DNA from: an uncultured Oscillospiraceae bacterium
GTDB taxonomy: Bacteria > Bacillota > Clostridia > RUG12999
Reading direction: 5' to 3'
Length of the DNA: 61,358 nt
NCBI GenBank assembly: GCA_964418245.1
Contig: CAYQKW010000005.1
Location: 1 to 61,358, forward strand
A program made the translations under genes and the position numbers. This document shows positions 1,502 through 61,172 of this stretch, in pieces (position 1 is the stretch's first letter; each line of letters starts with the position of its first letter). The notes beneath the pieces were generated by a model. That model did no database searches. It was not told the origin of the DNA and was given only the letters and a program-made list of their open reading frames with translations.

Positions 1502-1514
1502 GACGTTTCCCCCT

Positions 1515-3224: not shown

Positions 3225-3403
3225 ATCTGTATTCTCCCAATATTTTTATTTAATTCATCATTATTGATTTGTGCGTTGCCGCGTGTTTGTTCCGTGGGTT
3301 CGGGCAGAGCAGAGCCCTGCCCCTACGGGTTTGTACGGTAACGTGGTGCTACCTGCTAACCGCTAATATCCCCACGAGTTGTGCGCCGCACAAAGCAACG
3401 TTA

Positions 3404-5491
3404 TTAATCGAAGCTTATGCCCTCAAATGTTTTTATATCGGAAAGCGGTCTTAAATTTGTCGGGTCAACCGCAAATACCTTTATTTTATTACCGTTGCCT
3501 ATTTTGTCAAGCAGGATGTCTCCTTTAAATGCTTCAAATGCACTGTATTGAACATTCGGCATGAATTTTAAATCAACAAGTTTATTGCCGTCGTATACCG
3601 CAGCGGCAACATTAATACTGCTTTGGTCTATGTATGTTGTTTTCGATTCTTCGGTCGGTGCTCTGTACGATTCAACAACTATATTCAATTTGTCTCCACT
3701 GCCGATATATCCGCCTTCATCGCCGGTTGCTGTGAGAACAACCTCGTCCGCACTGTTGAATTTCTCGATTTTGATGTAATCCCATGCGCCATAGCCTTTT
3801 TGTCCGTTATTGCAGTCGTATAATCTTATCTTATTGAAACTAAAGTTATCACCCAAATCATATCCTGTCGGATTAATCAGCGTCCATTTTCCTTGGTTAT
3901 AACTTGTTACCTTTGCATACATATACATTTTTTTCGTATTGAAATCAATTACAACTTTATATTCTGCACCTGTAATCGGATCACATACAAATGACGCTCC
4001 GTCAGCCGGTCTTTTTGAATTTCCGTTCAATATATCATCTTTTGCCTCACCATTCAATCCGGTAACTTTCCACATATGCGAATATGTATAGCCGTTGGTG
4101 CTTATTCCGAGTGCAACACTTCTGCTATTTTTGTCACTGCCGTAAGAATTGTAAGTATCGTTAAGGAAATTTATAAAACTTCTCGGATCTTGACCGTTAT
4201 ATGAAGCCGGCGGCTGCGCTTTTCCGTCTTTCGTTTCGCCGAAGTACTTAACCGACACAGCCCAAACACCGCTGTTTGCTGTTTCTCCGATTTTTTTATC
4301 AAACAAAACATCTCTGTTGTTTTCCATGGAATAACATAATTTTCCGTCTTCTACCCATGCGGTTTCTTTTCTTGTATAATTTTCAAAACCGTAATCCCAC
4401 CAGCTGTCCTTTGTTTCATCATCAAATTTGCAGTTCCAAAGTACGGTATTGTCAGAATTATTTGAAACCATTATATCGTCAATTATCATTCTGCACGGAT
4501 CGTTATGATAACCCTCAGTATAAGCGAAGCCATCTATACCATCTTTCAAGTCAACACCAAAATCCTTCAAACTAATTCCGCATTCATCATCATAATCCGT
4601 TATTTTACCATCCTCGCCGTATTGCGGAATTCGTGTTATTTGTTTCCACCCATTGTTGAACCATCTGTAAATCTGAAGTGAGTTCTTTTCAAAATTAAGT
4701 TGAAATCTCATCTGATATTCCTGACCGTTTCCGGCATATAACATAAATCCAAAGTTTCCGGCATTATTATCTATCTTGTTTTGTCCTATAGTTTCTGATT
4801 TTTCTGCATTAGAAACAGTATCCGCTATTTTTGTATGTTGGGGATATTGTGCCAAAGATAGCGCCAATTTTTCGGTTGTTCCGTTAGTAAATATCAAATT
4901 TCTCCTCCAACCGGTCATTGTCTGTAATTTGAAATCAAAATTCCAAACACCGGATTTAATTACACTGTCAATTGCCGTGGTTTCTTCCGCCGCTGCCGTT
5001 GTGTTGCCTTCTTCGGGAATTTCGGTCGGTGTATTCATAGTTTTTATTTCTTCCGAAAGATTCTTTTTAAAACCGTAATATTCACCGTTGTATTCACCTC
5101 CGACTTTCGTTATTACGCCTTTTTCATCTTCAATCGAGAAGAAACTAACAGAATCTCTGCCGCTTAATGTATCGGCATTAACCAACAACTCTCCCGTACC
5201 GTAATCTTTCGCTTCCGTAACATTGATTGTCGTTATTGCTCCGTCTTCGCCTTCGACTTCTTTTGTGGTTGTTGTACCACGGAAAAGATTCTTTTTGATA
5301 TTATCTTTGTCATTTTCAGACATGTTGGTATCTTTAACTCCCGTATACTTGAACACGTTTCCGAATAAATCATATTGGGTCACGTTTTCAAAGTCTTGTT
5401 CATACACAACCTGTGCCGAAGCCGCCGACATCATGAGCACCGCAGCAACAACTGCCGAAGCCGCCCTTTTTAAAGTTTTTTGTTTTTTCAT
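3404..5491 (-). CDS. Large secreted protein of unknown function
   Basis: ORF 3404..5545. The likely start is ATG 5491 (MKKQKTLKRAASAVVAAVLMMSAASAQ is a signal peptide), preceded by AAAGGAA. I recognise no catalytic motif. Confidence 0.75.
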   Translation of the reverse strand: MKKQKTLKRAASAVVAAVLMMSAASAQVVYEQDFENVTQYDLFGNVFKYTGVKDTNMSENDKDNIKKNLFRGTTTTKEVEGEDGAITTINVTEAKDYGTGELLVNADTLSGRDSVSFFSIEDEKGVITKVGGEYNGEYYGFKKNLSEEIKTMNTPTEIPEEGNTTAAAEETTAIDSVIKSGVWNFDFKLQTMTGWRRNLIFTNGTTEKLALSLAQYPQHTKIADTVSNAEKSETIGQNKIDNNAGNFGFMLYAGNGQEYQMRFQLNFEKNSLQIYRWFNNGWKQITRIPQYGEDGKITDYDDECGISLKDFGVDLKDGIDGFAYTEGYHNDPCRMIIDDIMVSNNSDNTVLWNCKFDDETKDSWWDYGFENYTRKETAWVEDGKLCYSMENNRDVLFDKKIGETANSGVWAVSVKYFGETKDGKAQPPASYNGQDPRSFINFLNDTYNSYGSDKNSRSVALGISTNGYTYSHMWKVTGLNGEAKDDILNGNSKRPADGASFVCDPITGAEYKVVIDFNTKKMYMYAKVTSYNQGKWTLINPTGYDLGDNFSFNKIRLYDCNNGQKGYGAWDYIKIEKFNSADEVVLTATGDEGGYIGSGDKLNIVVESYRAPTEESKTTYIDQSSINVAAAVYDGNKLVDLKFMPNVQYSAFEAFKGDILLDKIGNGNKIKVFAVDPTNLRPLSDIKTFEGISFD

Positions 5492-5774
5492 AATACCATT
5501 CCTTTCATGCTTATTATCCAAACCGTACAAACCGCCCCGGCACACTCCATCGGCAATGCGGAGTTTGTGGCGATTACTCTTTATGCCGTTTTCGGTTTTT
5601 GAGTGGTTTTTCGTGTTTGGATTTTCAACACCCCGTGTTGTCCATGTATTAATTATACCACGTTTTGCTGTGCCGTGTCATCATACAATATTTATCGAGC
5701 ATACATTTATTTGCCCCATTTTCCTTTATTTTACGACATTTTATCCGTATGCCGATTTGTGTATGCTACGGTTC

Positions 5775-5803: not shown

Positions 5804-6134
5804 ATTATCACAGACCTGTAACTTTATGCCTAATGCATAATTCATAATTCATAATTATTGCTTGCACGATGTTCGTGCGAAAAAATGAAATCAATTGCAC
5901 CAACCCACGGGGCTGTAGTGAGTCGTGCGGAGAGTGGAGTCATCCGTGATTTCTAAAAACTAACAGCTAACCAAAATATTAGTTTGTTTGATTTTACATA
6001 TCCCCCTTGACGCACTTCGTGCACCGTCCCCCTTTTAGGTAAGGGGGCATTGGTTGGTACGTTGCCAACGGTTCTAACAACCGGCAACTAACCGCAAGGC
6101 ACACACAAAATATAACTTCAGGGGATGAACATAC

Positions 6135-8225
6135 ATGAATTGTATATGGTTGAGCAAAGAAAAATATCCGCACGAGCAGACATCGTTTCAAACGACATTC
6201 TGCGACAAATCCGATTACAGATTTTGTATTGCCGAATTTAAAAAGTATTTTACATTTGAAAAGAACATTTCGGAGATAATTGTAACCATGTGTGCCGATA
6301 CGAAATACGAACTGCAAATCAACGGCAAAAGAACGGGCGGCGGTCCTGTGTGCCGCGGAGGCGACTACGGTTTTTGTATCGCTCCGTCATACACCTACAC
6401 CGACACATACAGATTGCCGATGAACGGAACCGAGCTTGATTTTTATGTTTCTGTGCGGTTATTGCCGATTGCAATGGCAGAAACCTCGCTGGGGCTTGGC
6501 AGACTGGGGCTTGAATGCAAGGTTTGTTTTGCCGACGGAACACACACTTCGGTTTGTACCGACACTTCGTGGCTGTCGCGAAAAAATGCACATTACATCG
6601 GCATAAACACAATTGATTTTACGGTTGCCCAAAACGAATGGAGCTTTTCGGACCTCGTGCCGCCTTTTCCAAAGCTCATTTCATCGCCGCTTCCTCATCT
6701 TGTTTCCGAAAAAATCATGCCCGAACAATTTGCACCCGTAACTGTCGATGCCGGTGAAAAATCGGAAATTATTGTGATGTTCGACAAAATATATTCCGCA
6801 TACGCCCGTATTGTTACATCGGCAGAGAGTGATTACAGTATATCTGTCGATTTTTTTGAAGTACCGGAACAAATACTTGATACAGAACACATAACCGCCG
6901 ATAAATCCGTGGTGTATAAATCCCCGAAAATGCACAGCATCGGCGGATATATCATGCATATTGAAAACACGGGTGATTTTCCGCTTATTATAAATGAACA
7001 TTCCTTGATATACGAACACTATCCAATAACACACAGCGGTACATTCAGCTGTTCAAACGAAACGTTAAACAGGATATATGAAGTCGGCAAACATACGCTT
7101 GCGATATGCCGTCAAAGTATTGAACTTGACAGCCCGACACACATTGAAGCTTTGGGCTGCACCGGTGATTATTTCATCGAAAGTCTTATAAATTATTTTA
7201 CGTTCGGCGACACCGCACTCACAAGGCTTGACATAACAAGAACGGCGGAATATCTGCGCAGTACGGGCGGAGTGATGTTTCACACAACCTATTCTTTGAT
7301 ATACGTTCAGATGATATATGATTATTATATGTTTTCTGCCGACAGGGCATTGATTGAAGAAACAGCAGATGCCGTAAAGCTTTTGCTTGCGCGGTTTGAC
7401 GGATATACCGTCAGCGGCGGACTTATTGAAAATCCGCCGAATTTCATGTTTGTTGACTGGATTTTCACAGACGGATACAGTCTGCATCATCCTCCGAAAG
7501 CATTGGGACAAACGGTCATGAACGCATTCTATTACAAAGCATTGCTCACCGCCGCAGAAATATTCAAAATATCAAACGACGATACCGCCGTTGTGTATGC
7601 CGAACGTGCCGAAAATTTGAAAACGGCGTTCAACAAACATCTTTACGACGAAAACCGCGGTTTGTATTTTGACGGGCTTAACACCCCGTCCGAAGAAAAT
7701 AAATGGCTGCCGAAAAATTCCGAGAAACGGTATTTCGGTATGCATTCAAACACACTTGCGATTTTATACGGTCTTTGCCCGGATGCGGAATGCAAACGAA
7801 TAATGACAGCCGTAATCGAAGATAAATCGCTCACTCCCGTTCAGCCGTATTTTATGCATTTTGTGCTTGAAGCCGTTTACAAATCCGGGCTGTTCGAGAA
7901 ATACGGTCTTGCTTTGATTTTAAAATACAGCGATATAATTAACGAATGCGACAAAGGGTTGAAAGAGGGCTGGATCGATATGCCCGGATACCCTTACGAC
8001 TACAGTCATGCATGGGGTGCAACCCCAACGTATCAGCTGCCGTCAAAGCTTTTGGGATTTGAAATGATTGAACCCGGATTCAAAAAAATATCGCTTTCTC
8101 CACAGCTTTTCGGGCTTGACAGTGCAGATATATCCATTCCCACTCCATACGGATATATTAAATGCAGTATGAACAAAAACGGAACAAAAACGTATGTTCC
8201 GCCGGAAATAACCGTTATTGTGTAG
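6135..8225 (+). CDS. Alpha-L-rhamnosidase-like (GH78-type six-hairpin) glycoside hydrolase
   Basis: 696-aa ORF. DSPTHIEALGCTGDY resembles the DCPxRE-LGWTGD motif of the rhamnosidase (alpha/alpha)6 domain. The family call is from memory only. Confidence 0.55.
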   Translation: MNCIWLSKEKYPHEQTSFQTTFCDKSDYRFCIAEFKKYFTFEKNISEIIVTMCADTKYELQINGKRTGGGPVCRGGDYGFCIAPSYTYTDTYRLPMNGTELDFYVSVRLLPIAMAETSLGLGRLGLECKVCFADGTHTSVCTDTSWLSRKNAHYIGINTIDFTVAQNEWSFSDLVPPFPKLISSPLPHLVSEKIMPEQFAPVTVDAGEKSEIIVMFDKIYSAYARIVTSAESDYSISVDFFEVPEQILDTEHITADKSVVYKSPKMHSIGGYIMHIENTGDFPLIINEHSLIYEHYPITHSGTFSCSNETLNRIYEVGKHTLAICRQSIELDSPTHIEALGCTGDYFIESLINYFTFGDTALTRLDITRTAEYLRSTGGVMFHTTYSLIYVQMIYDYYMFSADRALIEETADAVKLLLARFDGYTVSGGLIENPPNFMFVDWIFTDGYSLHHPPKALGQTVMNAFYYKALLTAAEIFKISNDDTAVVYAERAENLKTAFNKHLYDENRGLYFDGLNTPSEENKWLPKNSEKRYFGMHSNTLAILYGLCPDAECKRIMTAVIEDKSLTPVQPYFMHFVLEAVYKSGLFEKYGLALILKYSDIINECDKGLKEGWIDMPGYPYDYSHAWGATPTYQLPSKLLGFEMIEPGFKKISLSPQLFGLDSADISIPTPYGYIKCSMNKNGTKTYVPPEITVIV

Positions 8226-49365: not shown

Positions 49366-52300
49366 TTATAATGTATTCATTATATTCAGCAGGCTTTGAT
49401 AGCTGTCCACATCGTGATAGCGCACATTTTCAGTGGAAATTTCGTTGAACAGCTTTTTTGCGCATTTGATTTTCGCTTGCTCAATCGGACGCAGATTAAG
49501 ACTTTCCATTGTGCCTTTCGTTTCGGCAACAAAATAAATATGCTTAACCGCTCCCTCATAAAATGCTATTGCCCAATCGGGCGAATAATTGCCTACAGGT
49601 GTGGGAATGTGAAAACCTTTCGGAAGCTTTGCGTAAACGCAGACTTCGTCCGCCGCATCCAAGCTTTCCGCAAACGTTTTTTCAACGCTGTTTTCCGCCG
49701 AACCGTCAGTAAACACATAATCCTGAATATGCTTTTTTGCCGCAAAAGCTTTTGAAATATCTTTGCCGCATTTTTCTGCCGTGAAAATCGCATTTTCGTA
49801 TTTTCCCTCAATCTCGTTATATGTTATATCAGAAACCACGGCGGCGGCCTTTTCCTCTTTAATCAGCCGTATAACCTTATTTATAAACTCCTCCGGATTG
49901 TATTTATACATTTCTTGCTTGTCACGGCGTATACCCTGCAATATTTTCGCAGCCGTTCTTCTTGTCAGCGTTGTTCCCTCCGCAATTTTTCCTATAAGGT
50001 CATATTTAACCGAGCTTACTTCCGTATGTTCTAACGTCATTGTTCTTGATTTTTCGGTTTTGAACGACTCTCCCCTGCCGATTTCGTATTCATTCATCTC
50101 ATCTTTTTGCCGACCGACCGTTGTTGTATATTGCAGCTGTGCAACAAAAAGCTTGTCGTTGATATGCGATATTGCTTTTTCGATAAGCTCGTTTGAATCG
50201 AAATGCGCCGTATACGCATATTTTTTATTGATTTTATTCCAAAGCTCCTTAAATTCTTTTTTGCGGAAATTATCATTCAGCGGATTTTCCGGCGGTTTTG
50301 TATTGTGTCCGTTGTCATACATCTCGGCAAGTACGCTGTCATCGAAAACAGCTTGTATAAGCTTATGCACACCGTCCGAAATATTTTGCAGTTCCTCCGG
50401 CACAGGCTCGCAGGCTCCGATTTTCACCGCTTCCCGATATTCTTTTGTAACACTGTCGCCATTGTCGATATAATCGTTTTTAATTAAATATCTGTAAATT
50501 AATTTTGCTTGTTTTTCGTCAATAACAACAGGCATATCGTTTATATCTTTAACTGTTTTGCCCACAAAATACTCAATCGACGCCTTTGTCGGTCTGTCAT
50601 AAAGAACGGTTTTTATATCGGACTGCAAATCGCTCACAAATGTTTTATAGCTTTCGCTTGCAATTACGGTGAGTAAATTTACACCGTGAACCGATTCGCC
50701 CAAGCTTTCGGCATCCATTCTGTTGCCGGCTTGATTAACGCACAGCCTAAGCCCCCTGCCAACCTCCTGGCGTTTTGCTGTTTGGCTGTCCGAATGCTTT
50801 AATGTGCAAATTTGAAACACATTCGGATTGTCCCATCCCTCACGAAGTGCCGAATGCGAGAAAATAAATCTCGTAGGCTCCTCGAAGCTGAGTAATCGTT
50901 CTTTTTGTTTCAGAATAAGCTCATACGCCGAAATATCGTCCGAAAATTCACTTCCCCGTTTCAGTTTGCTGTCTATGCTCTTTCCAGTTTTCTTGTCTAT
51001 GCTGAAATAACCGTTGTGAACCTTTTTCACATTGGAGCATTTTCCCTTGAGATATTTTTGATACGGTGTGTCGGAAAGCGTTATATATTCATTTAATATG
51101 CTTATATATTCCTGCTCGAATATTTTTGCGTATTCCCCTTGAATCTCCTCTCCGCTTTCGTCATAGTCCTTATACTTTGCAACCTCGTCGATAAAGAAAA
51201 GCGAAAGACTTTTTATTCCCATATTGAAAAGCTCCTCTTCTTTTTCAAAATGAGACGCAATCGTTTCTCTTATCTGAATACGCCGCATATCTTTTTCCGA
51301 AACGTCGCCCACAACATCTCCCGCGGATATAACCTCCCCGTTCACAAACGTAACCGTACCGCTTATGGGGTCTATTTCGGAAATTGTGTATCCGTCCTTA
51401 TACTGCTCCATTTGTTGCGATATGTAATAAAGATTATCACCGACTCCGAGTATTCTTGTTTCACGATTGATTGACTTGTTATATCCGATTTCAAGCTCAA
51501 TCTTTGCCATGGGCGGCTTCTTTGAGGACAGCACGATTCGTTCCAAAAACAAATACTTGTCCGTTCCTCGGAAGTTTTTAACCTCAAATCCTTTTACCTC
51601 GATTTTCTTAACAAGTTTTTTGTTGAATGCCTCAAGCGCATCCAAAACATACACAAGATTATTTTGCTTTTTGTGAGTTGCCGAATAATTCAGGCAAAAC
51701 AACGGATTAAAATTCTTTAATGCCTTTTGCGTAACATCTCCGCCCATTTTCTGCGGTTCGTCAAGAATAATAATAGGTCTGTTTGCCTTGATAACATCAA
51801 TCGGTCGGCGAGAGCCGAACTCATCACGCTTTGAATAGATGATACGGGCTTCCTTGCTTTTGCCGTCCTCTTTCAGCGACGATGCAAACGCCTGCGTATT
51901 GATTATCATAACATTTATTCCGGCACTTGCGGAAAAGTTGTCTATACTATTTAGATTTTTGCTGTCATACACAAAAAATCTTGCTTTCTTTCCGTAATGC
52001 TCCATAAAATGCTCGGCTGTTATTTCAAAAGTCTTTGCTACGCCCTCACGAATAGCAATACTCGGAACTACAACTATAAATTTGCTCCAGCCGTATTTTT
52101 TGTTAAGCTCAAACATCGTTTTGATATATACATATGTTTTTCCCGTACCCGTTTCCATTTCTATATCAAGCGAACATCGGCCAAAATCTTTTACAAGATT
52201 TGTAGAAAGTTTGATGTTGTTTTCGCTTTGCAGTTTGTGTATATTTATCAAAAGCTGTTCATCTGTCAGTTCCACAATTTCATTTTTGAAACCCGTTTCG

Positions 52301-52485
52301 TTCTCAAGGTCAAGTATTTCTCCGTATTCATCCTCAAACGCAAGCCCAATTTGCGCATTGACTTTTTTCTTCCCCAAATCTCTGCGGTATTCGGAATGCG
52401 TGTGATAGCCTTGTCCGGCAAAAACATCACAAACCGCATTTACCGCATCGGTTTGATATTGTTGTATTTTAAAATTAAATTTCAC
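49366..52485 (-). CDS. res: Type III restriction enzyme, Res subunit (SF2 helicase plus C-terminal PD-(D/E)xK)
   Basis: The N-terminus MKFNFKIQQYQTDAVNAV, motif I ETGTGKT, motif II ILDEPQKM, and C-terminal SPDWAI..FVAETKG. Confidence 0.85.
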   Translation of the reverse strand: MKFNFKIQQYQTDAVNAVCDVFAGQGYHTHSEYRRDLGKKKVNAQIGLAFEDEYGEILDLENETGFKNEIVELTDEQLLINIHKLQSENNIKLSTNLVKDFGRCSLDIEMETGTGKTYVYIKTMFELNKKYGWSKFIVVVPSIAIREGVAKTFEITAEHFMEHYGKKARFFVYDSKNLNSIDNFSASAGINVMIINTQAFASSLKEDGKSKEARIIYSKRDEFGSRRPIDVIKANRPIIILDEPQKMGGDVTQKALKNFNPLFCLNYSATHKKQNNLVYVLDALEAFNKKLVKKIEVKGFEVKNFRGTDKYLFLERIVLSSKKPPMAKIELEIGYNKSINRETRILGVGDNLYYISQQMEQYKDGYTISEIDPISGTVTFVNGEVISAGDVVGDVSEKDMRRIQIRETIASHFEKEEELFNMGIKSLSLFFIDEVAKYKDYDESGEEIQGEYAKIFEQEYISILNEYITLSDTPYQKYLKGKCSNVKKVHNGYFSIDKKTGKSIDSKLKRGSEFSDDISAYELILKQKERLLSFEEPTRFIFSHSALREGWDNPNVFQICTLKHSDSQTAKRQEVGRGLRLCVNQAGNRMDAESLGESVHGVNLLTVIASESYKTFVSDLQSDIKTVLYDRPTKASIEYFVGKTVKDINDMPVVIDEKQAKLIYRYLIKNDYIDNGDSVTKEYREAVKIGACEPVPEELQNISDGVHKLIQAVFDDSVLAEMYDNGHNTKPPENPLNDNFRKKEFKELWNKINKKYAYTAHFDSNELIEKAISHINDKLFVAQLQYTTTVGRQKDEMNEYEIGRGESFKTEKSRTMTLEHTEVSSVKYDLIGKIAEGTTLTRRTAAKILQGIRRDKQEMYKYNPEEFINKVIRLIKEEKAAAVVSDITYNEIEGKYENAIFTAEKCGKDISKAFAAKKHIQDYVFTDGSAENSVEKTFAESLDAADEVCVYAKLPKGFHIPTPVGNYSPDWAIAFYEGAVKHIYFVAETKGTMESLNLRPIEQAKIKCAKKLFNEISTENVRYHDVDSYQSLLNIMNTL

Positions 52486-52508
52486 TTTCGGTCGTTCCTC
52501 CCTTCGGT

Positions 52509-52540
52509 AATTAGGAATGTGAAATTAGTAGTTAGGAATT
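52509..52540. repeat. Left arm of the AGGAATTAGG-type inverted repeat flanking the four-helix-bundle gene
   Basis: aattaggaat at 52509..52518 is the exact complement of attcctaatt at 52905..52914. The inner parts share aattag/ggaat words. Confidence 0.75.
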
Positions 52541-52885
52541 TTGTTTTGTAGTCTTTGTGATAGCTGATAACAGCTTTTGTATTTCAACGCAATCATTGCT
52601 TATGGAATTATATTCCGCTTCGGTCAAATAATCGGTTTCAGACAATAACGCTAACCAATATATGCTTTCCGAACATTCCTTAAATGCAATATACATTTTC
52701 GCCAAAAATTCTTTTTTGCTTATAGCACAATTTGCTTCAGAAACATTTGCACCTATGCTCGTTCCGCTACGAAGTAATTGTTTTGACAAAACGAACTCTT
52801 TCTTTTCGTCACACAAATATTTGTAAAGTTTTACAATGCGTATTGCAAACTTTTTACTTTTTTCAAAAACTATACTTTCTTTCAT
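52532..52885 (-). CDS. Four-helix-bundle protein (23S rRNA intervening-sequence protein family)
   Basis: 117 aa. FAIRIVKLYKYL.., QLLRSGTSIGANVSEA.., KEF..K..IA.KE..E..YWL are typical of this family. Confidence 0.8.
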   Translation of the reverse strand: MKESIVFEKSKKFAIRIVKLYKYLCDEKKEFVLSKQLLRSGTSIGANVSEANCAISKKEFLAKMYIAFKECSESIYWLALLSETDYLTEAEYNSISNDCVEIQKLLSAITKTTKQNS

Positions 52886-52914
52886 TTCTAATTTCTAACT
52901 CCTAATTCCTAATT
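52886..52914. repeat. Right arm of the inverted repeat flanking the four-helix-bundle gene
   Basis: ttctaatttctaactcctaattcctaatt fills the gap between the mod stop and the four-helix gene's ATG. Confidence 0.75.
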
Positions 52915-54961
52915 TTATAAAACCTTTCTTACCGTATCCGGACTATATGTAGCAAATATCTGTTCAAAGTTTGTTGCAACACTATCATCTGCAAAACCGT
53001 TATCACGCATTACGAAATAGTACGGTTGTTTCTTTGCGATTTCTGTTATAAGCTCTGCTGTAATATCTTTGTCAAAACAAGCAATTAAAAAGTTATCCGC
53101 AACATCAAAATATGTATAATTCCTAATTCCTAACTCCTCATTCCTAATTTCAATTTTGCTGCTAAGCAAAATTCCAAGGTCAAGCATAACTTGGAAAAGT
53201 AAATCTTCGGCTGTTCTGTCATCTTTTATGTTATCGACCATATCGTCAAGCATGGACATATTTACGTTCTGCGGATTGTAGTATACATCTTTCATGTTGG
53301 ATGTATCGAGTTTGAGAACACGGAATCCCGTGTCTAATGAGGAGTTTTTTAATGAGGAATTAGTAGTGAGGAATGAGGAATTGTCGGTATTTTCATTTCT
53401 AATTCCTAATTTCTCATTCCTAATTTTTTGTCCTGCACGGCGAATACGCTCTTTACCAATTTCACAAATATTTTTATATCCGGCTTTGTATGCTTCCGAT
53501 TTCACATCGCACGGTTCAGGCAACTGCACCATAATGAACTTTCGAGTACCCCCCCCCGATTCCATTTTTATCCATTTCTTCCGCATTCAACTGCATAACA
53601 GCGTGGGCGGTAGTTGCAGAACCGGAGAAGAAGTCGAGGATAATATCATTATCTTCAACTGATGCCATTCTAAGAAATCTACAAATGAGGGCTGTTCCTT
53701 TTGGATAATCGAAAACAGCACTTCCAAAAAGCTCTTTCACAGCTTTAGCACCATCATTCGTTTCTTCTATCCAAGTAGTATATTTCTGAGTTTTTTCCTC
53801 ACCTTCTAACGGAGCAAATATTTTTTCGTATGCAATCCAATCACCATCTGCATTTTTAATAAACTCAACTTTTCCGTCAGCAATGTTCTGCTTCATGGTG
53901 CTGGCGCCGTGGCGCCAGCACCCGTCAAATTTTACCAAATTTGACGGGCGCTGTTTATCCTTTTCGGTATAAAAAGGATAAACAGCTGTTCCGTCCGGAG
54001 CTATTATTGGATAATACAAATTAGGTCTATCTTCTCTTCTACTGTTTGAACCCCATTTCCTCAATAATTGAGTTTTATAATATCGTCCTTTTTCGCTATC
54101 ATATTTCGGATAGACATCATTATTTTTTATTTCTTCTCCAGCTGAAAAATGTTCTTTGTTTTTGGCATAACAGAGAATGTACTCGTGAACGGCAGCATAA
54201 TATTTGCTATCCTGACGACCACCACGTCCTTTCCAGTTTATTATCGCAATAAAATTACTTTCTCCAAATATATCATTGCAAACTTTTTTCAAATTTTCTA
54301 CTTCATTATCATCAATGCTGATAAAGATTACCCCATCATCACTCAGCAAATCCTTTACCAACTTTAATCTGGGATAAATCATATTCAGCCAATCGGTATG
54401 GAAACGACCGTTATTTTCAGTGTTCTTTTCGAGTTTTCCGACTATTTGATTTCCGTCTGCGTCATAATTTCCGCTAACCTCGTCCCATTCCTCATTTCTC
54501 ATTCCAAATTCATCATTATAAACAAAGTCATTACCCGTATTGTACGGAGGGTCTATGTAAATCATTTTGATTTTGCCAAGATATGTTTCTTGCAATAATT
54601 TCAACACTTCCAGATTATCGCCCTCGATATAGAGGTTTTCGGTTGTGTCAAAATCTACGCTTTCCTCACGGCAAGGACGGAGCGTTTTATTTATCGGAGC
54701 ATTCGCCAGCAAAACAGACTTCTTCTTGTCCGGCCAGGTGAACTGATACCGTTCCTCTTTGCCGTCAACAACCTTTGTGTTTATTTCTTGCATAAGTACA
54801 TCTTTATCTATTGCACGAATAACCTCGCCCGTTGTTTCGTCAATTGTTTCCGTCACCGCATTCGGAAACAGCTCCGCCAGCTTTCTGAAATTCTCATCGG
54901 CTTTGTTCGCCGTTTGCATACGCAAATGTAATTCGGAATTATTTGTCGTTTCATTTTTCAT
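52915..54961 (-). CDS. mod: Type III DNA methyltransferase Mod, currently out of frame at a G9 tract (two ORFs: 53516..54961 and 52915..53586)
   Basis: DPPYNTGNDF (motif IV), then LDFFSGSATTAHAV (motif I). The frame breaks at GIGGG. The downstream frame continues TRKFIMVQLPEP..IGKERIRRAG..DTGFRVLKL. Confidence 0.85.
53118..53155. repeat. Solitary arm of the AGGAATTAGG-type element inside mod (translated as IRNEELGIRN)
   Basis: aattcctaattcctaactcctcattcctaatttcaatt. Confidence 0.7.
53351..53425. repeat. Empty hairpin copy of the AGGAATTAGG-type element, in frame inside mod
   Basis: The arms are 53351..53382 and 53395..53425, with the loop gtcggtattttc. It is translated as GIRNEKLGIRNENTDNSSFLTTNSSLKNSSL. 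Confidence 0.75.
53549..53557 (-). repeat. Homopolymer G9 (C9 on the + strand) at the mod frame break
   Basis: Counted directly: ..gagta ccccccccc gattcc... Confidence 0.9.
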
Positions 54962-55012
54962 TGTTTTATTCCTCTTTCAATATTTTTTACTCTTATGACA
55001 CGTATTTTTAAA

Positions 55013-56122
55013 TTAAATTTCATACTCTACATCTCCGTCTCTTTCTTTTTGTTGGAGATAGAATATAGCCTTTTGTGCTTCAATTTCTGCTTTTAACTCT
55101 TCTTCCGTGGGGAGATAGAGCTTATACTTGCTTGCGAATAACTGCTCATTACCGTGCATTACAGAATACTTTGCAATATCTTCATCCGTGTCGGAGCAAA
55201 GCACGATACCTATAGTCGGATTATCCCCCTCACTGCGTTTCAGCTCATCATACATTCTGATATACATATCCATTTGACCTACATCTTGATGAGTGATTTT
55301 CTTTGTTTTAAGGTCAATCAACACAAAACATTTAAGAATGTAATTGTAGAAAACGAGGTCAATAAAATAGTCTTCTTTTTCAGTTTGGATATGTTGCTGT
55401 CTTGCAACGAAAGCATATCCTTTGCCCATTTCCATAAGGAACTTTTGTATGTTGGAAATAATGCTTGTTTCAAGCTCCGTTTCCGTAAAAGCCGTGTTTT
55501 GCCCTAATCCGAGAAATTCTGCAATAACAGGATTTTTAATAAATTCAAGTTTGTCAGCTTGATATTCTGCGGTTAAGTCTTTCATTTCATTTTCTACAAG
55601 TTCTTTCTTCTGAGATTGCAGCAAGCGATAATAATATTGCGATGAAATATTTCTCTGCAACGTTCTTACGCTCCAAGTCTGCTCGGCAGCTTCTTTTGCA
55701 TACCATTCACGGGCTTTATCGTCGTTTACCTGTAACAACGTTCTGTAATGCGACCAAGAAAGCAACGGAGTAGATTTTCCACACAGTGAGTGGAAAATGT
55801 TTGGGAACATTTTATAAAATGAATAAAAGCTGTAAAGATTTGTTTTTGTAAAGCCTTTTCCGTAAGTTTCGGTTAAATGTTTTGACAAATTTTTTATAAT
55901 ATTCAAACCGTAATTTTCTGTACGGTTTGAATTGCCGAGTTCTTCTTCAGCAATTCTGTATCCTATAAGCCAATTGCGTTGTACAAGCATTGTATTAACA
56001 GCACTGTGAACTGTTTTTTGCGTTGTTTCAATCAATTTCTGCATATCTGCATAAATATCTTCGGTTTTTTTATAATTCATCATAAGATTATTATTGCCTG
56101 TTTCAAACATTCTATTTTCCAT
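55013..56122 (-). CDS. YhcG-like PDDEXK nuclease-domain protein (DUF1016)
   Basis: 369 aa. The C-terminus EDYFIDLVFYNYILKCFVLIDLKTKKITHQDVGQMDMYIRMYDE is typical of the family. Confidence 0.75.
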   Translation of the reverse strand: MENRMFETGNNNLMMNYKKTEDIYADMQKLIETTQKTVHSAVNTMLVQRNWLIGYRIAEEELGNSNRTENYGLNIIKNLSKHLTETYGKGFTKTNLYSFYSFYKMFPNIFHSLCGKSTPLLSWSHYRTLLQVNDDKAREWYAKEAAEQTWSVRTLQRNISSQYYYRLLQSQKKELVENEMKDLTAEYQADKLEFIKNPVIAEFLGLGQNTAFTETELETSIISNIQKFLMEMGKGYAFVARQQHIQTEKEDYFIDLVFYNYILKCFVLIDLKTKKITHQDVGQMDMYIRMYDELKRSEGDNPTIGIVLCSDTDEDIAKYSVMHGNEQLFASKYKLYLPTEEELKAEIEAQKAIFYLQQKERDGDVEYEI

Positions 56123-56140
56123 GATTTACTCCTTTCCGGA

Positions 56141-56296
56141 TTATAATGTAATGTAGTTTTTCCTGTCTGCCGCAGTTGTTCGGAATTTCCGAACAACTGT
56201 ATTTTCATCAAGCTCTCCGTCTGCTAAGATATTTTTTATATGTTCGCTAATGTTGAATTTACTTGTTTTATATAATTCGGAATTCCGAATTATTTC
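56141..56296 (-). pseudogene. RhuM-family gene remnant (51 codons)
   Basis: My translation is EIIRNSELYKTSKFNISEHIKNILADGELDENTVVRKFRTTAADRKNYITL*. It matches the conserved RhuM core (..NIS.HIKNI..EGEL.. ..F.TTA.DGKNY) and has no start codon. Confidence 0.55.
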
Positions 56297-56907
56297 TCAC
56301 TCCTCAGTTTCAATTCTTTTATCTTCTGCACCAGCTCAAATTTTTTCTTCGGCTGTTTTTCGGCTCGTGCCTGTTTTTCAAGTCGTGCGATTTCTTTTTG
56401 CAGTTTTTCGGTTTGTTCCATTGATTTTATTTGTGCGGTAAGCGGCATTGCCTTATCTTTTTTTATACCGGAAACCTGCAAAATAAAATTTTCATAAACT
56501 TCATCAAGGCTAATGCCCTCTATTTTCAACCGCAATTCATTTTCGGTCTGCCATTCCGTATGGAAATACTTAATAAAACCGCCGTCTTTGTGACAAAGCC
56601 AAATCTGATATTTATCCGAATATTCGAGTATATATACATTATTATACGGAATAACTTTATCAATCTGTTTTATGGCGGAAATATCAAGTTTATTACCGTT
56701 CAGCATAACTTTGAAGATTTGTATTTCCGAAACGGTTTGTCCGCAGTTTATGTTTATTGTATCCTGAGATAATTTATATGCCCATTTGATTTCCTTTATT
56801 TGTTCGGCAAAGATTTTTTTCATTGCCGCCGTTATTGACATATTCTCATAAAATTTCTGTTTCGGTATTCTTTTGTTAAGTTCTGCCGCTCTCGGAAATT
56901 CAAACAT
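56290..56907 (-). CDS. DUF4391-family protein
   Basis: MFEFPRAAELNKRIPKQKFYENMSITAAMKKIFAEQIKEIKWAYKL..EIQIFKVML..IPYNNVYILEY matches my memory of DUF4391 N-terminal conservation. Confidence 0.7.
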   Translation of the reverse strand: MFEFPRAAELNKRIPKQKFYENMSITAAMKKIFAEQIKEIKWAYKLSQDTININCGQTVSEIQIFKVMLNGNKLDISAIKQIDKVIPYNNVYILEYSDKYQIWLCHKDGGFIKYFHTEWQTENELRLKIEGISLDEVYENFILQVSGIKKDKAMPLTAQIKSMEQTEKLQKEIARLEKQARAEKQPKKKFELVQKIKELKLRSEK

Positions 56908-57241
56908 AAGATAACTCCTTACCGTCGTCGCACCAACTCTTGCTGTCTATATAATAAATCAACTCAACCATACCGTTGTATCTTCTTTTTTCGATTACAT
57001 TTTTAATCGGAGGATATTTCATAAAACAAAACCATATTTCCTCATAATCATATACCGGAGAACATCTCGAACAGGGTTTCTTTTTTGAATATCGTTCATA
57101 TTTTGAACTCGGTTTATAGCATTCATATTCCTCACCGTACCGCATAATAAATTGCCGCTCCTTAAAGGTTTGTTCGCCAATCATGTCCGTTATAAGTTTT
57201 TTCACATGATTACGGCTTATTCCCGACAAACCGTAATTCAT
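56900..57241 (-). CDS. 113-aa protein of unknown function (possible N-terminal HTH, 5 Cys)
   Basis: It overlaps the DUF4391 start by 8 nt. It contains LSGISRNHVKKLITDMIGE and C-x15-C-x2-C. Confidence 0.5.
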   Translation of the reverse strand: MNYGLSGISRNHVKKLITDMIGEQTFKERQFIMRYGEEYECYKPSSKYERYSKKKPCSRCSPVYDYEEIWFCFMKYPPIKNVIEKRRYNGMVELIYYIDSKSWCDDGKELSYV

Positions 57242-57283
57242 AATTTCATTGCATACTTTATTATAAATATAACCGACACTTTC

Positions 57284-57736
57284 TTACGAGTTAATTATTT
57301 CATTAATATTATCAATCATTTCCTGTGCAGAGTGGGACATCAGCTCTTGTCTTAATATATGCGAAAATCTAATCTTCTTTTTTACATTATCCGAAGAATT
57401 GATTTTTCCTTTTTGAAATTCACAAGCTCCGATAATAACAACATCATCAATCACGAACTCTGTAATGCAAGGATATTTAACCGCAGAATAAATTATATTC
57501 CCAACTTTGTATATATCGGCTCTGCTTTTTAACACAACTTCAAAGAATTGTATTTCTTCATATCTTAACGTATCGGTTATTGTTGCCGATGTATTCGATA
57601 TTCCCGGTTTTATATTTCCCGATAAGATAATTTTATCTATATTGCCGTACACCTCATTGTTTTTATCCGTTATAAACTTTTCTTTCGGGATATTTATATT
57701 TAATTTACACATATCCGGAATTTTTATCAGTTTCAT
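57284..57736 (-). CDS. Short divergent DUF4391-like protein (150 aa)
   Basis: It shows the same pattern as the paralogue: INIPKEKF.., IDKIILSGNIKP.., EEIQFFEVVLKS.., YPCITEF. It begins 4 nt after the SNF2 stop. Confidence 0.45.
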   Translation of the reverse strand: MKLIKIPDMCKLNINIPKEKFITDKNNEVYGNIDKIILSGNIKPGISNTSATITDTLRYEEIQFFEVVLKSRADIYKVGNIIYSAVKYPCITEFVIDDVVIIGACEFQKGKINSSDNVKKKIRFSHILRQELMSHSAQEMIDNINEIINS

Positions 57737-57740
57737 AATA

Positions 57741-60700
57741 TTATTCCACCACCAAAAAAGTAATCAATTCAAAATCGTTCAGTCCTGTAAAATTATTCAT
57801 CAAAAGAGTTGTTCCTCCCGGTTTAAAAAGACTGTCGATGTCGCATTCTTCCTTAACTTCAATAATGGAGGATATGGCATCTCCCAAAAGTTTTGAGAAT
57901 TTTGACATATCTCTGCCGTCTTGAGTTTCTTTGTTAAATTCACGATAAACCTCTGCAATAGGTTCTGTTTTGCCTTTGCACAAACAACGCAATTTATCAA
58001 GCATTTTTTTCGGCGACAAATGGTCGCAAACAACCGCTCCGTCTGCTGTGATATACACCATATAAAACGGGTGCAATCTGTTTTGTTTATCAATATTAAC
58101 GCTGTTTGAACGGTTTTTGAGTATATATATCACACCCGGAGGATTTTCTTCTGTTGAGGGAACAACGGAATGCAAACCATATGGTGTTTTGTCGATATTG
58201 GGATGATATTTTGTATATTCAAGCAAATCAAGCCTAAATTCATTAAGTCCCAAATCCATAATCGAAATTCCGCTTGACATATCCTCAATATCCACAACTT
58301 CTTCTTGTAATCGTTTCAGCTGTGCTTTTCGATATTCAAGGTCTGTTTTTTCTTCATCACTCAAAAGATTGTCATCGCCGGTTGCCGTCATATCGACAAT
58401 TTTCATTCTTGTTTCAACTTTTGCTTTAAGGTCAATATACTCATCAAGAGTAACATCGGGACAAAAATTCACAAGCTGTATATATTTATTTTTACTTCCT
58501 ATACGGTCAATTCTGCCGAACCGCTGAATTATGCGGACAGGATTCCAATGTATATCATAATTTATAAGATAATCGCAGTCCTGCAAGTTTTGTCCCTCGG
58601 AAATACAGTCCGTTGCTATAAGAATATCAATATCGTATTTTGGTATGCTTTCAAACATATCTCTGTCTTTCGATATGGGAGAAAAGCAAGTAAGCACTGT
58701 ATTTAAGTCGCATTTTAATTTCGGAATTGTTGTTTTTCCCTCAACAGAACCGGTAATGAGTGCGGTTTCAAGTCCGAAATTATTTTTTGCAAATTCGCTG
58801 ACATTTTCGTACAAATAATCGGCGGTATCGGCAAAAGCGGTGAAGATAATCACTTTTTTATTGCCTGCATTAATAGGATTTTCGATTTTATTTACCAAAA
58901 CAGAAAACAACTTCTGCAATTTGCTGTCGTGTTCGGGTGTTATATCCCCGACCATCAAAGTTAAAAGTTCAAGAATATCTTTATCTTTTTCAAGGCTTGT
59001 TTTCCAGGATTTATAGTCCATATCCGCAAGGCTGATTTTCACTTTTTTGCCAAAAGAAAAAAGTTCGTCACCGTTTTGGTCATCATTGTCAAATTCGTCA
59101 ATGTTTGTGATGTCTGTTAAGTCAAGATTGACTTTTGAAACATTATCGTATTCTTCAATGGTGCTTATGGTACTTGTAATTAAGTCCTTAATTCTTGTCA
59201 ATGTCAGGTTGAAAGAATATACCGAACTTTCCATACGTTTCATAAGATTGATTGCCATAAGTCTGCGAAGCCCTTGTTCACGGTTGGCTTGAGTGAACCC
59301 GACATTTATTTTATCGTCACCGAAAACTTCTTTATATTTTTCAATTCTGCTCGGCAGCAGATAATGTGACGGTGTATAAATCGAAAGCGAAAGCTGTGTG
59401 AGCTGTTCAAATATTTCATTATAGTTTATCACTTTTTCCAAATCAGTCAAACAAGGGCTTAGAGAAACAGGTTTCAGGCGTAACGGGAATGTTCCTATTT
59501 CTTCCATATCGTAATATTTTTGTATGTGTTTTCTGGAACGGGCAATCGTTACCGAATCAAGCACTTCAAAAAAGTCAAAATCCAGCATTTTAAGCAAACT
59601 TTCCGTGGTTCTTTCTGCCGGATTCCATTTGCTCCACGTATTAAAAGCTCTTTGTGCGTTTTTAAAAATTTCGTTGATTGAGTGATTTGTGTTCAATTTA
59701 TCATCAATCAGCTCCGTATTCCCCTCATATGCAAGCGCAAGCTGATTTTTAAGGTCGTTAAATCTGTTGTTTACGGGTGTTGCGGAAAGCATAAGTACTT
59801 TTGTTTTAACACCGGTACGAATAACCTTTTTAAGAAGTTTCAAATATCTGTTTTGCTTTTCGTCATCATTACCGGAAACTTTTCCGCCGTTTCGGAAGTT
59901 ATGCGATTCGTCAATCACAACAAGGTCGTAGTTTCCCCAATTAAGCCTATCCAAATCAAGACCGTTTGATTTTCCGCTTGCACGATTCAAATCGGTATGA
60001 TATAAAACATCATATCGTAATCTGTCGGCGGCAATCGGATTATTTATGTAATTATCTTTATATGTATTCCAGTTGTTCGAGAGTTTTTTCGGACACAGCA
60101 CAAGAACGGATTTATTTCTGTTTTCATAATATTTGATAACCGCAAGAGCAGTAAATGTTTTGCCTAATCCGACACTATCGGCTAAAATACAGCCGTTAAA
60201 TTTTTCGAGTTTATTTATAATGGCAAGTGCGGCATCTTTTTGAAAATTGTAAAGTATATTCCAAATTTTGCTTTCCTTAAATCCCGTTGCTTCGTTAGGC
60301 AAATCATCATCGCTTATATCGTTCAAAAATTCGCTGAATATGTTATACAGCGTAACAAAATATATAAAATCGGGAGAATTTTCGTTATATGCCGCCGTGA
60401 TGCTTTCAATCACTTCATCCGTAACTGTCTGCAAATGATTTTTATCGTTCCAAATTTCATTGAAACTTTTCAGCAAGGTTTGAGCCAAACTCTCATCTTT
60501 CACAATAGCGGTGCTTATGGTGTTTCCTTTTTCACATCCAATTTCAACCGCCGTAAATTCCTTTATCGGAGTATATCCTATATTATCAATAACCATCCTG
60601 CCTTGAATTGTTTTATCGCCGGTATTGGACTTGAACGTTACTTTTTTCTTTATCCACTCCGCACATTCTTTTGCTATTGCTTTTTGAGTCAGTTTGTTAC

Positions 60701-60974
60701 GCAGTTTCACTTCATATTCCGTTCCGTAAAGATTTTTTTCGCGATTAAGCCGAGGAATATAAAATTCACGGTTTTCTTTTTTCTCTTTTTCGGCAATAAA
60801 CGCCGGAGATGTAAATATAAAACGAAGTTCATCAATATTGGTTAGTTCGTCTTTCAGCTCTTGAAACGCATAAATCGAAAAGCAAGCGGCGGCAATGGCA
60901 ACTTTGCTTCCGTCGGTTATTTCGACTTTCAAATCATCTTTTAATGTTTTCGATACATTATCTATAATTTCCAT
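57741..60974 (-). CDS. SNF2-family helicase with a roughly 250-aa uncharacterised N-terminal domain
   Basis: Motif I DSVGLGKT, motif II VIDESHNFRN and SATPVNN are present. The C-terminal motifs are ATDCISEGQNLQ and QRFGRIDRIGS. The start is chosen at MEIIDN, 8 nt after GGGAG. Confidence 0.85.
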   Translation of the reverse strand: MEIIDNVSKTLKDDLKVEITDGSKVAIAAACFSIYAFQELKDELTNIDELRFIFTSPAFIAEKEKKENREFYIPRLNREKNLYGTEYEVKLRNKLTQKAIAKECAEWIKKKVTFKSNTGDKTIQGRMVIDNIGYTPIKEFTAVEIGCEKGNTISTAIVKDESLAQTLLKSFNEIWNDKNHLQTVTDEVIESITAAYNENSPDFIYFVTLYNIFSEFLNDISDDDLPNEATGFKESKIWNILYNFQKDAALAIINKLEKFNGCILADSVGLGKTFTALAVIKYYENRNKSVLVLCPKKLSNNWNTYKDNYINNPIAADRLRYDVLYHTDLNRASGKSNGLDLDRLNWGNYDLVVIDESHNFRNGGKVSGNDDEKQNRYLKLLKKVIRTGVKTKVLMLSATPVNNRFNDLKNQLALAYEGNTELIDDKLNTNHSINEIFKNAQRAFNTWSKWNPAERTTESLLKMLDFDFFEVLDSVTIARSRKHIQKYYDMEEIGTFPLRLKPVSLSPCLTDLEKVINYNEIFEQLTQLSLSIYTPSHYLLPSRIEKYKEVFGDDKINVGFTQANREQGLRRLMAINLMKRMESSVYSFNLTLTRIKDLITSTISTIEEYDNVSKVNLDLTDITNIDEFDNDDQNGDELFSFGKKVKISLADMDYKSWKTSLEKDKDILELLTLMVGDITPEHDSKLQKLFSVLVNKIENPINAGNKKVIIFTAFADTADYLYENVSEFAKNNFGLETALITGSVEGKTTIPKLKCDLNTVLTCFSPISKDRDMFESIPKYDIDILIATDCISEGQNLQDCDYLINYDIHWNPVRIIQRFGRIDRIGSKNKYIQLVNFCPDVTLDEYIDLKAKVETRMKIVDMTATGDDNLLSDEEKTDLEYRKAQLKRLQEEVVDIEDMSSGISIMDLGLNEFRLDLLEYTKYHPNIDKTPYGLHSVVPSTEENPPGVIYILKNRSNSVNIDKQNRLHPFYMVYITADGAVVCDHLSPKKMLDKLRCLCKGKTEPIAEVYREFNKETQDGRDMSKFSKLLGDAISSIIEVKEECDIDSLFKPGGTTLLMNNFTGLNDFELITFLVVE

Positions 60975-61172
60975 AGTATAAACTCCCATCGTACGTTTAT
61001 AATCGCAAAATCAAAGCCCCCGGAAACAAACTTTGTTTCTAATGTGTATAACCTATATAATATCGCATATATCACCGTTGCGTTCTGCGTATATTCTCAC
61101 GAGAACCGAAATTGCCGTATGTTTATTCTTGTTAATCTTTGTCATTACCGACGGTGATGCTTCTTTTTGTGC

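Follow-up and report, generated by a model that had tools for sequence, protein, structure and literature searches.

A four-helix-bundle gene between inverted heptamer arrays at the mod-res junction of a Type III restriction-modification operon: a probable intervening-sequence-type cassette

The PF05635 family of four-helix-bundle (4HB) proteins was first found within the stem-flanked intervening sequences (IVSs) of 23S rRNA. In a 61,358-nucleotide stretch of DNA from an uncultured Oscillospiraceae bacterium (CAYQKW010000005.1, referred to as the window when its whole length is meant), a gene of this family lies between mod and res of a restriction-modification (R-M) operon of Type III, bracketed by complementary arms whose words return inside the reading frame of mod. 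The locus raises the question of what kind of unit the gene and its arms make up in such a setting, and of how the arrays within mod are related to it. On the evidence assembled here, positions 52509-52914 are probably an intervening-sequence-type cassette, in which a functional PF05635 gene lies within complementary arrays of 7-nt units and is inserted exactly between the stop codon of mod and the start codon of res.

The gene, its arms and their rRNA counterparts

In the order of transcription, the features of the junction are as follows.

52915..54961, minus strand: Type III mod, in two open reading frames (ORFs; 53516-54961 and 52915-53586); Pfam N6_N4_Mtase
52886..52914, minus strand: upstream (sense) arm, AATTAGG AATTAGG AGTTAGA AATTAGA AATG
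52532..52885, minus strand: 4HB gene, 117 amino acids, between mod and res
52509..52540, minus strand: downstream (antisense) arm, AATTCCT AACTACT AATTTCA CATTCCT AATT
52486..52508, minus strand: res spacer, 23 nt, ACCGAAGGGAGGAACGACCGAAA, in which GGAGG is the ribosome-binding site of res, with its GTG at 52485
49366..52485, minus strand: Type III res, downstream of the cassette; Pfam ResIII and RE_endonuc (helicase and endonuclease domain)

Every gene in this region is on the minus strand, the 4HB gene in the same sense as the transcript of mod and res. Its product matches PF05635 (23S_rRNA_IVP) with an E value of 1.2e-29 and a score of 103 bits, against a cut-off of 33.8, and TIGR02436 ("four helix bundle protein") with an E value of 4.8e-32, also above the curated cut-off. 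The protein contains the RxxxSxxxNxxE motif, read as RSGTSIGANVSE, and its nearest solved structure, at an E value of 4.9e-38, is 2RLD, in which five chains are deposited. The flanks of the cassette are protein-coding (mod stop at 52915, res start at 52485) and do not belong to a 23S rRNA gene, in which IVSs are found at helix 25 or 45. No recombinase or transposase is encoded in the cassette, where the 4HB gene is the only ORF; PF05635 was the only Pfam match, and a Y1/HUH transposase was likewise not found as the enclosed gene. The genome of the window (1.6 Mb, 74% complete) contains no identical second copy of the cassette, and its second PF05635 gene, on contig C24, has flanks that differ from those of the cassette. 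A look-up of the exact 4HB protein sequence returned no other record. A gene for RNase III (rnc) was found in this genome.

The arms are inverted arrays of 4-5 AATTAGG-type 7-nt units, 31 nt long and 77% complementary, with a duplex energy of -20.7 kcal/mol. The initial annotation of this DNA, made from the sequence alone, had described the gene as bracketed by arms with exact outer 10-bp complements, and this proved correct: on the plus strand, AATTAGGAAT at 52509-52518 faces ATTCCTAATT at 52905-52914. It had further stated that the arms fill both intergenic gaps, which holds for the upstream side, where the arm occupies the whole of the 29-nt gap between the mod stop (52915-52917) and the ATG of the 4HB gene, but not for the downstream side, where the 23 nt of ACCGAAGGGAGGAACGACCGAAA remain before res. 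The fit to the genes is close on either side. The mod stop codon TAA directly precedes the upstream arm, the terminal AATG of which supplies the ATG of the 4HB gene, and the same arm contains AGGAG and stop codons in all three frames. The downstream arm begins 6 nt before the 4HB stop codon and so holds the last two codons and the stop. The res spacer (52486-52508) is conserved in the cassettes of two further loci, L039 and L040. The arm stem is found in both the minimum-free-energy and the centroid folds of the 491-nt transcript.

Both gene and arms appear to be maintained. The ratio of nonsynonymous to synonymous substitution (dN/dS) between the 4HB gene and its close relatives is 0.04-0.09 with synonymous sites near saturation (pS 0.6-0.9), which indicates that the protein is functional. 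That the arms keep their word family over such saturating divergence means that they are maintained either by selection or by continual homogenisation.

This design is that of the ORF-bearing IVSs of 23S rRNA in Coxiella and Leptospira (Ralph & McClelland 1993; PMC4990558). In Coxiella burnetii, the IVS in helix 45 contains an S23p ORF after 3-4 tandem GACAGAT units, the number of which varies between strains; RNase III cleaves its 28-bp stem within the array, at the first unit (Warrier et al. 2016, PMC4990558). Common to these elements and the cassette are a PF05635/S23p gene in the loop in sense orientation, tandem heptamers that abut the start codon (3-4 there, four here), a complementary 3' arm, a stem of ~28-31 bp and a sporadic distribution; mobility has been proposed for the rRNA element. 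They differ in that the host of the cassette is a protein-coding operon rather than an rRNA helix, and in that the Coxiella ORF is decaying and probably untranslated, whereas the cassette gene is under strong purifying selection. The cassette also has a spacer with a ribosome-binding site that would pass translation on to the next gene.

Filled and empty junctions, and the PF05635 family

The mod-res junction was compared in 82 orthologous operons, in which the mod stop and the res start lie between -4 and 2591 nt apart. Of these junctions, 15 are empty (<=13 nt); these typically read ...AAGGAAGGTGCTGTAATG..., with the stop and start codons overlapping and the ribosome-binding site of res lying within the mod tail. 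The ancestral state is one in which mod and res abut or overlap (TAATG). A 4HB cassette is present at the junction in six operons, namely those of the window, of the same-genus genome G001 and of loci L039, L040, L072 and L074, and inverted heptamer arms are found in all six. The arms come in dialects: AATTAGG in the window, L072 and L074, AATGCAT in G001, and GAGTGTG in L039 and L040. Duplex energies within a dialect are -18 to -36 kcal/mol for the AATTAGG type and -30 to -46 kcal/mol for the GAGTGTG type. The G001 arms pair with each other at -39.8 kcal/mol, compared with -3.5 to -6.7 kcal/mol with arms of the others, the exception being the G/U-rich upstream arm of L039 at -20.3 kcal/mol.

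In G001, mod and res are close to those of the window, but the 4HB protein shows only 61% identity, and the protein tree places it outside the clade of the window, at an unresolved position beside genes of the AATKCAY dialect; gene and arms have thus been replaced together. One metagenome contig has 466 other letters in place of 52521..52915. The cassette is an insertable, exchangeable unit with a precise intercistronic position and self-complementary dialects. The initial proposal that gene and arms form a small cassette is supported by its presence or absence at orthologous junctions, by its wholesale replacement between sister genomes and by the design shared with the ORF-bearing 23S IVSs.

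Several cassettes overlap their neighbours or have been rearranged. The Res protein of G001 may start within the 3' arm (MHCELCIE...; L033 5500-5530), and the 4HB ORFs of L039 and L040 run through the 3' arm and overlap the res start. In L072, from Bacteroidales, four tandem 185-nt copies of an internally deleted cassette lie 750 nt after an intact 4HB gene, each consisting of an arm, a Bacteroidetes-type promoter, an ATG, the 3' end of the gene and a second arm.

Many other junctions hold unrelated cargo genes, most of which begin on or just past the mod stop. The slot (52486-52914 in the window; loci L037-L116) takes RhuM-like, DUF1016/YhcG-like, membrane-protein and other genes. No arms were seen on cargo of these other kinds (RhuM-like, membrane proteins and others) in the gaps that were read.

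A second junction of the same kind of operon is also occupied. The proteins nearest to the 4HB protein of the window, with 81-85% identity, are encoded at mod-res in two metagenome contigs. Another relative, 81% identical, lies between the SNF2 helicase block and DUF4391, as does one from Ruminococcus bromii that is 76% identical; the loci of the window's 4HB lineage at this SNF2-DUF4391 junction, with 76-85% amino-acid identity, are L189, L187 and L190/191, the last from R. bromii. All of these relatives carry AATTAGG-type inverted arms, and in the protein tree copies from the two junctions are interleaved and not grouped by junction. The SNF2 ORF of R. bromii terminates within the 5' arm (...VIRN*; L190 840-870). 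In this operon family the gene order is SNF2 helicase, DUF4391, an optional SieB/AbiH/YhcG gene, mod and res (49366-60989 in the window; loci L186-L191). Its occurrence in Clostridia, Bacteroidales, Treponema, Fretibacterium and other phyla points to frequent horizontal transfer.

Beyond this operon, 26 of 61 related genomes contain PF05635 genes, as do 47 of 150 from the class as a whole. A set of 85 distinct Clostridia PF05635 genes was compared with 500 ordinary ORFs from the genome of the window. Three or more tandem heptamers lay within 100 nt upstream of 23.5% of the former and 0.8% of the latter (p = 1e-14), and tandem heptamers downstream of 15% and 2.2%, respectively. A 7-mer word occurring at least four times upstream was found for 59% against 12% (p = 3e-20). 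Inverted arms flush with a PF05635 ORF are present in unrelated operons (L129, L148, L149, L119, L122 and L159). Within this family inverted arms are a minority habit, and repeated words are nearly always present. The suggestion that the cassette targets R-M operons is not supported by these comparisons, given that the same packaging surrounds PF05635 genes in unrelated operons and that the mod-res slot also takes many unarmed genes. A second packaging is seen at the other PF05635 gene of the window's genome (L032, C24:2400-3100) and at many others, where 4-5 copies of a 7-9-nt word (AAATCATG, AATTCATG, AATTTAGCT, AACTTCAC or ATATCGA) lie upstream between small GNRA- or UUCG-like hairpins.

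Heptamer arrays within mod and beyond

Words of the arm family recur at three places within mod, and a further array of a different dialect lies elsewhere in the window.

53351..53425, minus strand: gene-less hairpin in mod, ~5+5 units with an 18-nt loop, in frame as IRNEKLGIRNENTDNSSFLTTNSSLKNSS
53118..53152, minus strand: lone sense array in mod, five units, in frame as IRNEELGIRN
54484..54517, minus strand: weak third in-frame array in mod, EFGMRNEEWDE, after the DPPY motif
5822..5856, plus strand: AATGCAT/AATTCAT heptamer array at the head of an intergenic composite repeat resembling repetitive extragenic palindromes (REPs), without a 4HB gene

The empty hairpin and the lone array had been noted at the outset as in-frame copies of the arm words, and their positions, frame and translations were all confirmed. 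The hairpin stands in place of an ancestral linker, KEESPLTTQD, and the lone array in place of an ancestral EETTIAGKK segment. In the hairpin, each third unit is AATGAGA or AATGAAA in the left arm and CATTCCT in the right arm, at positions where the canonical unit would give an in-frame TAG or TAA, and these stop-avoiding variants of the two arms are complementary to each other. Their placement exactly at the would-be stop codons indicates that the in-mod arrays have been shaped by selection to keep Mod open.

The age of these arrays can be gauged from the orthologues. Among 120 close Mod orthologues, whose C-terminal parts are 77-89% identical, ~115 carry in-mod arrays, including that of R. 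bromii, so the arrays are not recent in this genome. The hairpin site of these carriers reads IRNE.LGI.NE...NSSL.TPNSSL, their second site reads IQVR.E.VGMR., and unit number varies only by 21-nt steps. The arrays are nonetheless derived: among 80 distant orthologues, taken as one genome per species, most have the plain 16-residue linker AGKKIKEESPLTTQDL. Exactly at that linker, 13 of the 82 operons have a heptamer hairpin, in six dialects. The AATTAGG dialect of the Mod hairpin is found in Clostridia, Bacteroidales and Peptococcaceae, and the others are AATGCAT, GAGTGTG, AATTACG, AGTTGTC (in a Fretibacterium) and AGTGGCC (in a Holophagaceae). A tree of the Mod C-terminal domain, from which the hairpin columns were left out, requires on its well-supported branches a minimum of eight hairpin gains or losses, and several hairpin-bearing mod genes have a hairpin-less sister (e.g. 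L044/L053 and L085/L105).

Conversion of the second site took place once in the clade of the window and, as a separate event, in a Bacteroidales gene whose flanking residues are still those of its sisters. A recombinant patch from the window's clade was considered as the origin of the L072 arrays and rejected, since L072 keeps these residues (GIELS). At the third site, after DPPY, four relatives (L033/G001 at ~7480-7520, L037, L039 and L187) have an AATGCAT-type array, SMHNSQFIMHNGG, in place of 13 native codons, AQSTDEYLANSGQ; as the length is unchanged, this swap looks like conversion and not insertion.

In-mod arrays are present in 6 of 6 cassette-bearing operons and in 10 of 76 cassette-less ones (Fisher p = 2e-5). 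Gene-less stems translated within a host protein, as initially suggested, do exist here, with the same word families translated in Mod. The further proposal that these stems are scars left by the cassette is not supported: the arrays are old and frame-adapted, and no excision event was seen. They would rather appear to be long-standing residents of the Mod lineage than fresh excision scars. The upstream arm and its surroundings (52880-52916) are 89% identical over 37 nt to the left arm of the hairpin (53391-53427), including the ATGAAA that starts the 4HB gene. The in-mod hairpin may be a cassette that has lost its gene, or the match may reflect shared unit variants only.

The split of mod lies elsewhere in the gene. 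A G9 run (53549-53557, coding strand) coincides with the frame break between its two ORFs, whereas Mod of the same-genus genome G001 is an unbroken protein of 680 amino acids. Metagenome contigs start at 53551, and assemblies thus break at or just inside the G9 run.

The arm words are not low-complexity sequence scattered at random. With up to one mismatch, ATTCCTAATT occurs 23 times in the window against 10.7 expected, a count reached by none of 100 shuffles, and the genome contains 27 arrays of at least four units compared with 2-4 in block shuffles. Five of the 27 are in this locus; most of the rest are intergenic and lie beside REP-like GGGCGGAC...GTCCGCCC hairpins. AATTCCK/AATTAGG arrays are found in at least ten REP-like intergenic elements on other contigs, and the flanking repeats of the cassette therefore belong to the dispersed repeat population of the genome. 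In assemblies of four gut metagenomes, the summed contig depth of the arm words is 1200-5700, compared with ~4 for the unique DNA between them, which indicates that such arrays are very common in the gut habitat. The related tract reported at 5831..5858 is real and of the same class of repeat, but its dialect, AATGCAT/AATTCAT, is another one, and the tract is part of a composite REP-like repeat between genes, not of a cassette. Composite repeats of this kind have three components, namely the GGGCGGAC...GTCCGCCC hairpin, a module of 45 nt (ATTATTGCTTGCACG..TGCGGAAAATGAAA) and arrays of heptamers in several dialects; such repeats were seen at 5822-5990 of the window, C40:13380-13830 (three tandem 120-nt units), C18:2430-2660 and C33:3400-3430.

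Competing explanations and implications

If 52509-52914 is indeed a cassette of the IVS type, its arms would be expected to pair in the polycistronic transcript to give a stem of ~30 bp with the gene looped out, and that stem would serve as an RNase III substrate, both by analogy with the 23S rRNA copies. The three-frame stops in the arms would end translation of mod and the short spacer with its ribosome-binding site would restart that of res, and it is through these features that a tightly coupled operon could tolerate the insert. The hairpin and lone array in mod would be gene-less members of the same repeat population that settled in two permissive surface linkers, and purifying selection would since have kept them open. 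Candidate routes to new sites are recombination through the abundant arrays and a hairpin-dependent activity.

A number of observations weigh against this interpretation. A search of sequencing runs turned up no RNA run that contains this stretch. The pairing of the arms and their cleavage in the transcript are carried over from the rRNA copies, and the fold of the whole transcript is weak (z = -1.1). Selection on a sense RNA would predict that stem mismatches on the coding strand be G.U rather than A.C, and the opposite is seen, with 40 A.C and 16 G.U overall. Coding constraints may account for the in-mod part of the A.C excess; the mismatches thus lend no support to sense-RNA selection, and the comparison is not decisive because the in-mod arms are also coding-constrained. 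A target-site duplication, sought by aligning the right flank with the mod tail and with the empty-junction consensus, was not significant against shuffles (p = 0.16-0.88), and the idea that the res spacer is a diverged copy of the mod tail was rejected on these grounds. Plain allelic exchange through the flanking homology of mod and res could explain the replacement of cassettes. The association between cassettes and in-mod arrays comes down to four phylogenetically independent pairs, of which three agree and none disagrees, and is not significant in these terms. Most of the sampled PF05635 genes are without inverted arms and have direct arrays, or 7-9-nt words and mini-hairpins upstream only. 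Across the family, flank-to-flank duplexes of -25 kcal/mol or stronger are not significantly enriched (17.6% against 10.4%, p = 0.06); this statistic, which is confounded by terminators and other hairpins, was dropped. An integron attC cassette was considered and set aside on the ground that the arms bracket the gene on both sides; no search for an integrase was made.

A rival proposal is that the 4HB protein, as a pentamer, binds the arrays as RNA or single-stranded DNA with one unit per protomer, in a self-propagating or self-regulating system resembling that of REPINs and RAYTs, for which the in-mod and REP-like arrays would be dispersed targets. The typical array length of 4-5 units suits such a stoichiometry, as do the deposition of 2RLD with five chains and the homopentameric toroid of the Xanthomonas homologue, as cited in PMC4990558. 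Repeated words are strongly enriched beside PF05635 genes even where a stem is impossible, and the arms derive from abundant repeats of the genome, much as REPs flank RAYT genes. In a small tree the dialect tracks the 4HB clade, with the AATTCATG/AAATCATG pair well supported and the AATKCAY genes together in the unresolved part; dialect and clade could, however, simply be co-inherited, and 4HB proteins that are 70% identical may either differ in dialect (window and L040) or share it (window and L072). The abundant TTAGTGA/CTAACAG and AATTATG dialects lack a cognate among the two 4HB genes found in this genome, which is 74% complete, and stand-alone members of the family are not known to bind nucleic acid or to be catalytic. 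We regard this proposal as unlikely. Somewhat less likely again is a generic accumulation of slippage-prone heptamers in tolerant sequence such as gaps between genes, the edges of inserted genes and loose linkers of proteins, in which arms arise in place by slippage and quasi-palindrome correction and the 4HB gene is one passenger among many in the mod-res slot, functionally unconnected with the arms. It would account for the finding that the majority of the 27 arrays lie in REP-like elements between genes, with no 4HB gene, for the metagenomic depth of the arm words, for the 21-nt steps among Mod orthologues and for the many unrelated cargo genes of the mod-res slot; moreover, the ancestral linker DNA is already weakly hairpin-like, and both in-mod sites begin after AAAATT. 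Yet all six 4HB cargos are armed, against none of the other cargos in the gaps read, tandem arrays are ~30-fold enriched upstream of PF05635 genes, and the arms persist while synonymous sites saturate. The AATTAGG, AATGCAT and GAGTGTG dialects each recur in cassettes and Mod hairpins of different genomes, a pattern that local growth from an AAAATT seed cannot produce, and the design is shared by the copy in Coxiella rRNA.

Phase variation is classically known from Type III mod genes, and the arrays might be thought of as contingency tracts: a change in length by one or two units would alter the reading frame of mod and so turn the methylase off or on, in addition to the G9 tract that already lies at the frame break. 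Seven is not a multiple of three, and in-frame differences of 21 nt between orthologues would be expected if in-frame variants alone survived. The units are, however, imperfect (72-84% matches), by which slippage is suppressed; no length variants at the arrays were seen in the contigs of the four metagenomes, where assembly tends to lose rare variants; and neither the hairpin arrangement nor the matching cassette arms is explained. A role as contingency tracts seems improbable, and the IVS-type cassette is the reading that we retain.

Dispersed heptamer arrays are familiar from other bacteria, the short tandemly repeated repetitive (STRR) sequences of cyanobacteria being one example. TAACTGA arrays occur in Beggiatoaceae, cyanobacteria and Bacteroidetes, both immediately upstream of start codons and, read in frame, within the variable loops of proteins (MacGregor 2015, PMC4679880), and GGGAATC arrays in Xanthomonas include 70-75 convergent pairs (Rehm et al. 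2015, PMC4692102). Like the arrays described here, these consist of tandem 7-nt units, usually 3-5, just upstream of starts or after stops, with some in frame in variable loops, inverted pairs and suspected horizontal spread. The papers name no gene family associated with them, whereas here PF05635 genes are flanked by arrays, and cassettes share their dialects with hairpins inside proteins. The 23S_rRNA_IVP genes within cas operons, e.g. between cmr3 and cmr2 (Zhang & Ye 2014, PMC3936711), are another instance of the family wedged into a defence operon, and share the RxxxSxxxNxxE motif; no flanking repeats or hairpins are reported there, whereas the host operon here encodes a Type III R-M system along with SNF2 and DUF4391.

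Systems of REPs or REPINs with RAYTs are alike in that a single-copy gene lies between inverted members of an abundant short palindromic repeat, of which gene-less copies are intergenic; they differ from the present case, which involves a four-helix bundle without a HUH/Y1 fold, tandem 7-mers instead of a 20-40-nt palindrome, and dialects that vary by copy. Rickettsia palindromic elements, which Ogata et al. reportedly described in 2000 as inserted in frame in protein genes, are likewise palindromic repeats said to be tolerated and translated in conserved proteins at surface positions. The inserts here are much shorter (18-66 nt against 100-150 nt), are built of heptamers, arose repeatedly at one and the same linker and have a link with a cassette gene. 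A literature search found no searchable paper linking PF05635 genes with R-M operons and inverted repeats, and none that joins the IVS, heptamer and cas-operon observations or deals with armed R-M cassettes or translated gene-less hairpins.

The locus has practical consequences, in that metagenome assemblies break at the arrays, and gene callers and annotators will take translated hairpins for native low-complexity linkers. It also provides a natural experiment: in a widely transferred R-M operon, one and the same junction is found empty, filled or filled in another way, a further junction is occupied too, and gene-less hairpins have been gained again and again at one protein linker. As a speculation to which we attach only slight weight, PF05635 pentamers and heptamer arrays may form one genetic system across phyla, in which the protein would recognise a 7-nt word of its own, each protomer taking one unit, the gene with its inverted arrays would colonise rRNA helices, gene boundaries within operons and defence operons, and gene-less hairpins would spread into permissive protein linkers and be translated there; the 23S IVS, the heptamer repeats and inserts of the IRNEELGIRN type would then be three faces of one element. 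What the locus does bring together are the 23S IVS, unexplained for three decades, and two things equally unexplained, the large "four helix bundle protein" family and the abundant heptamer repeats of many bacterial genomes, and with them the IVS architecture known from rRNA is found also in ordinary operons and proteins.

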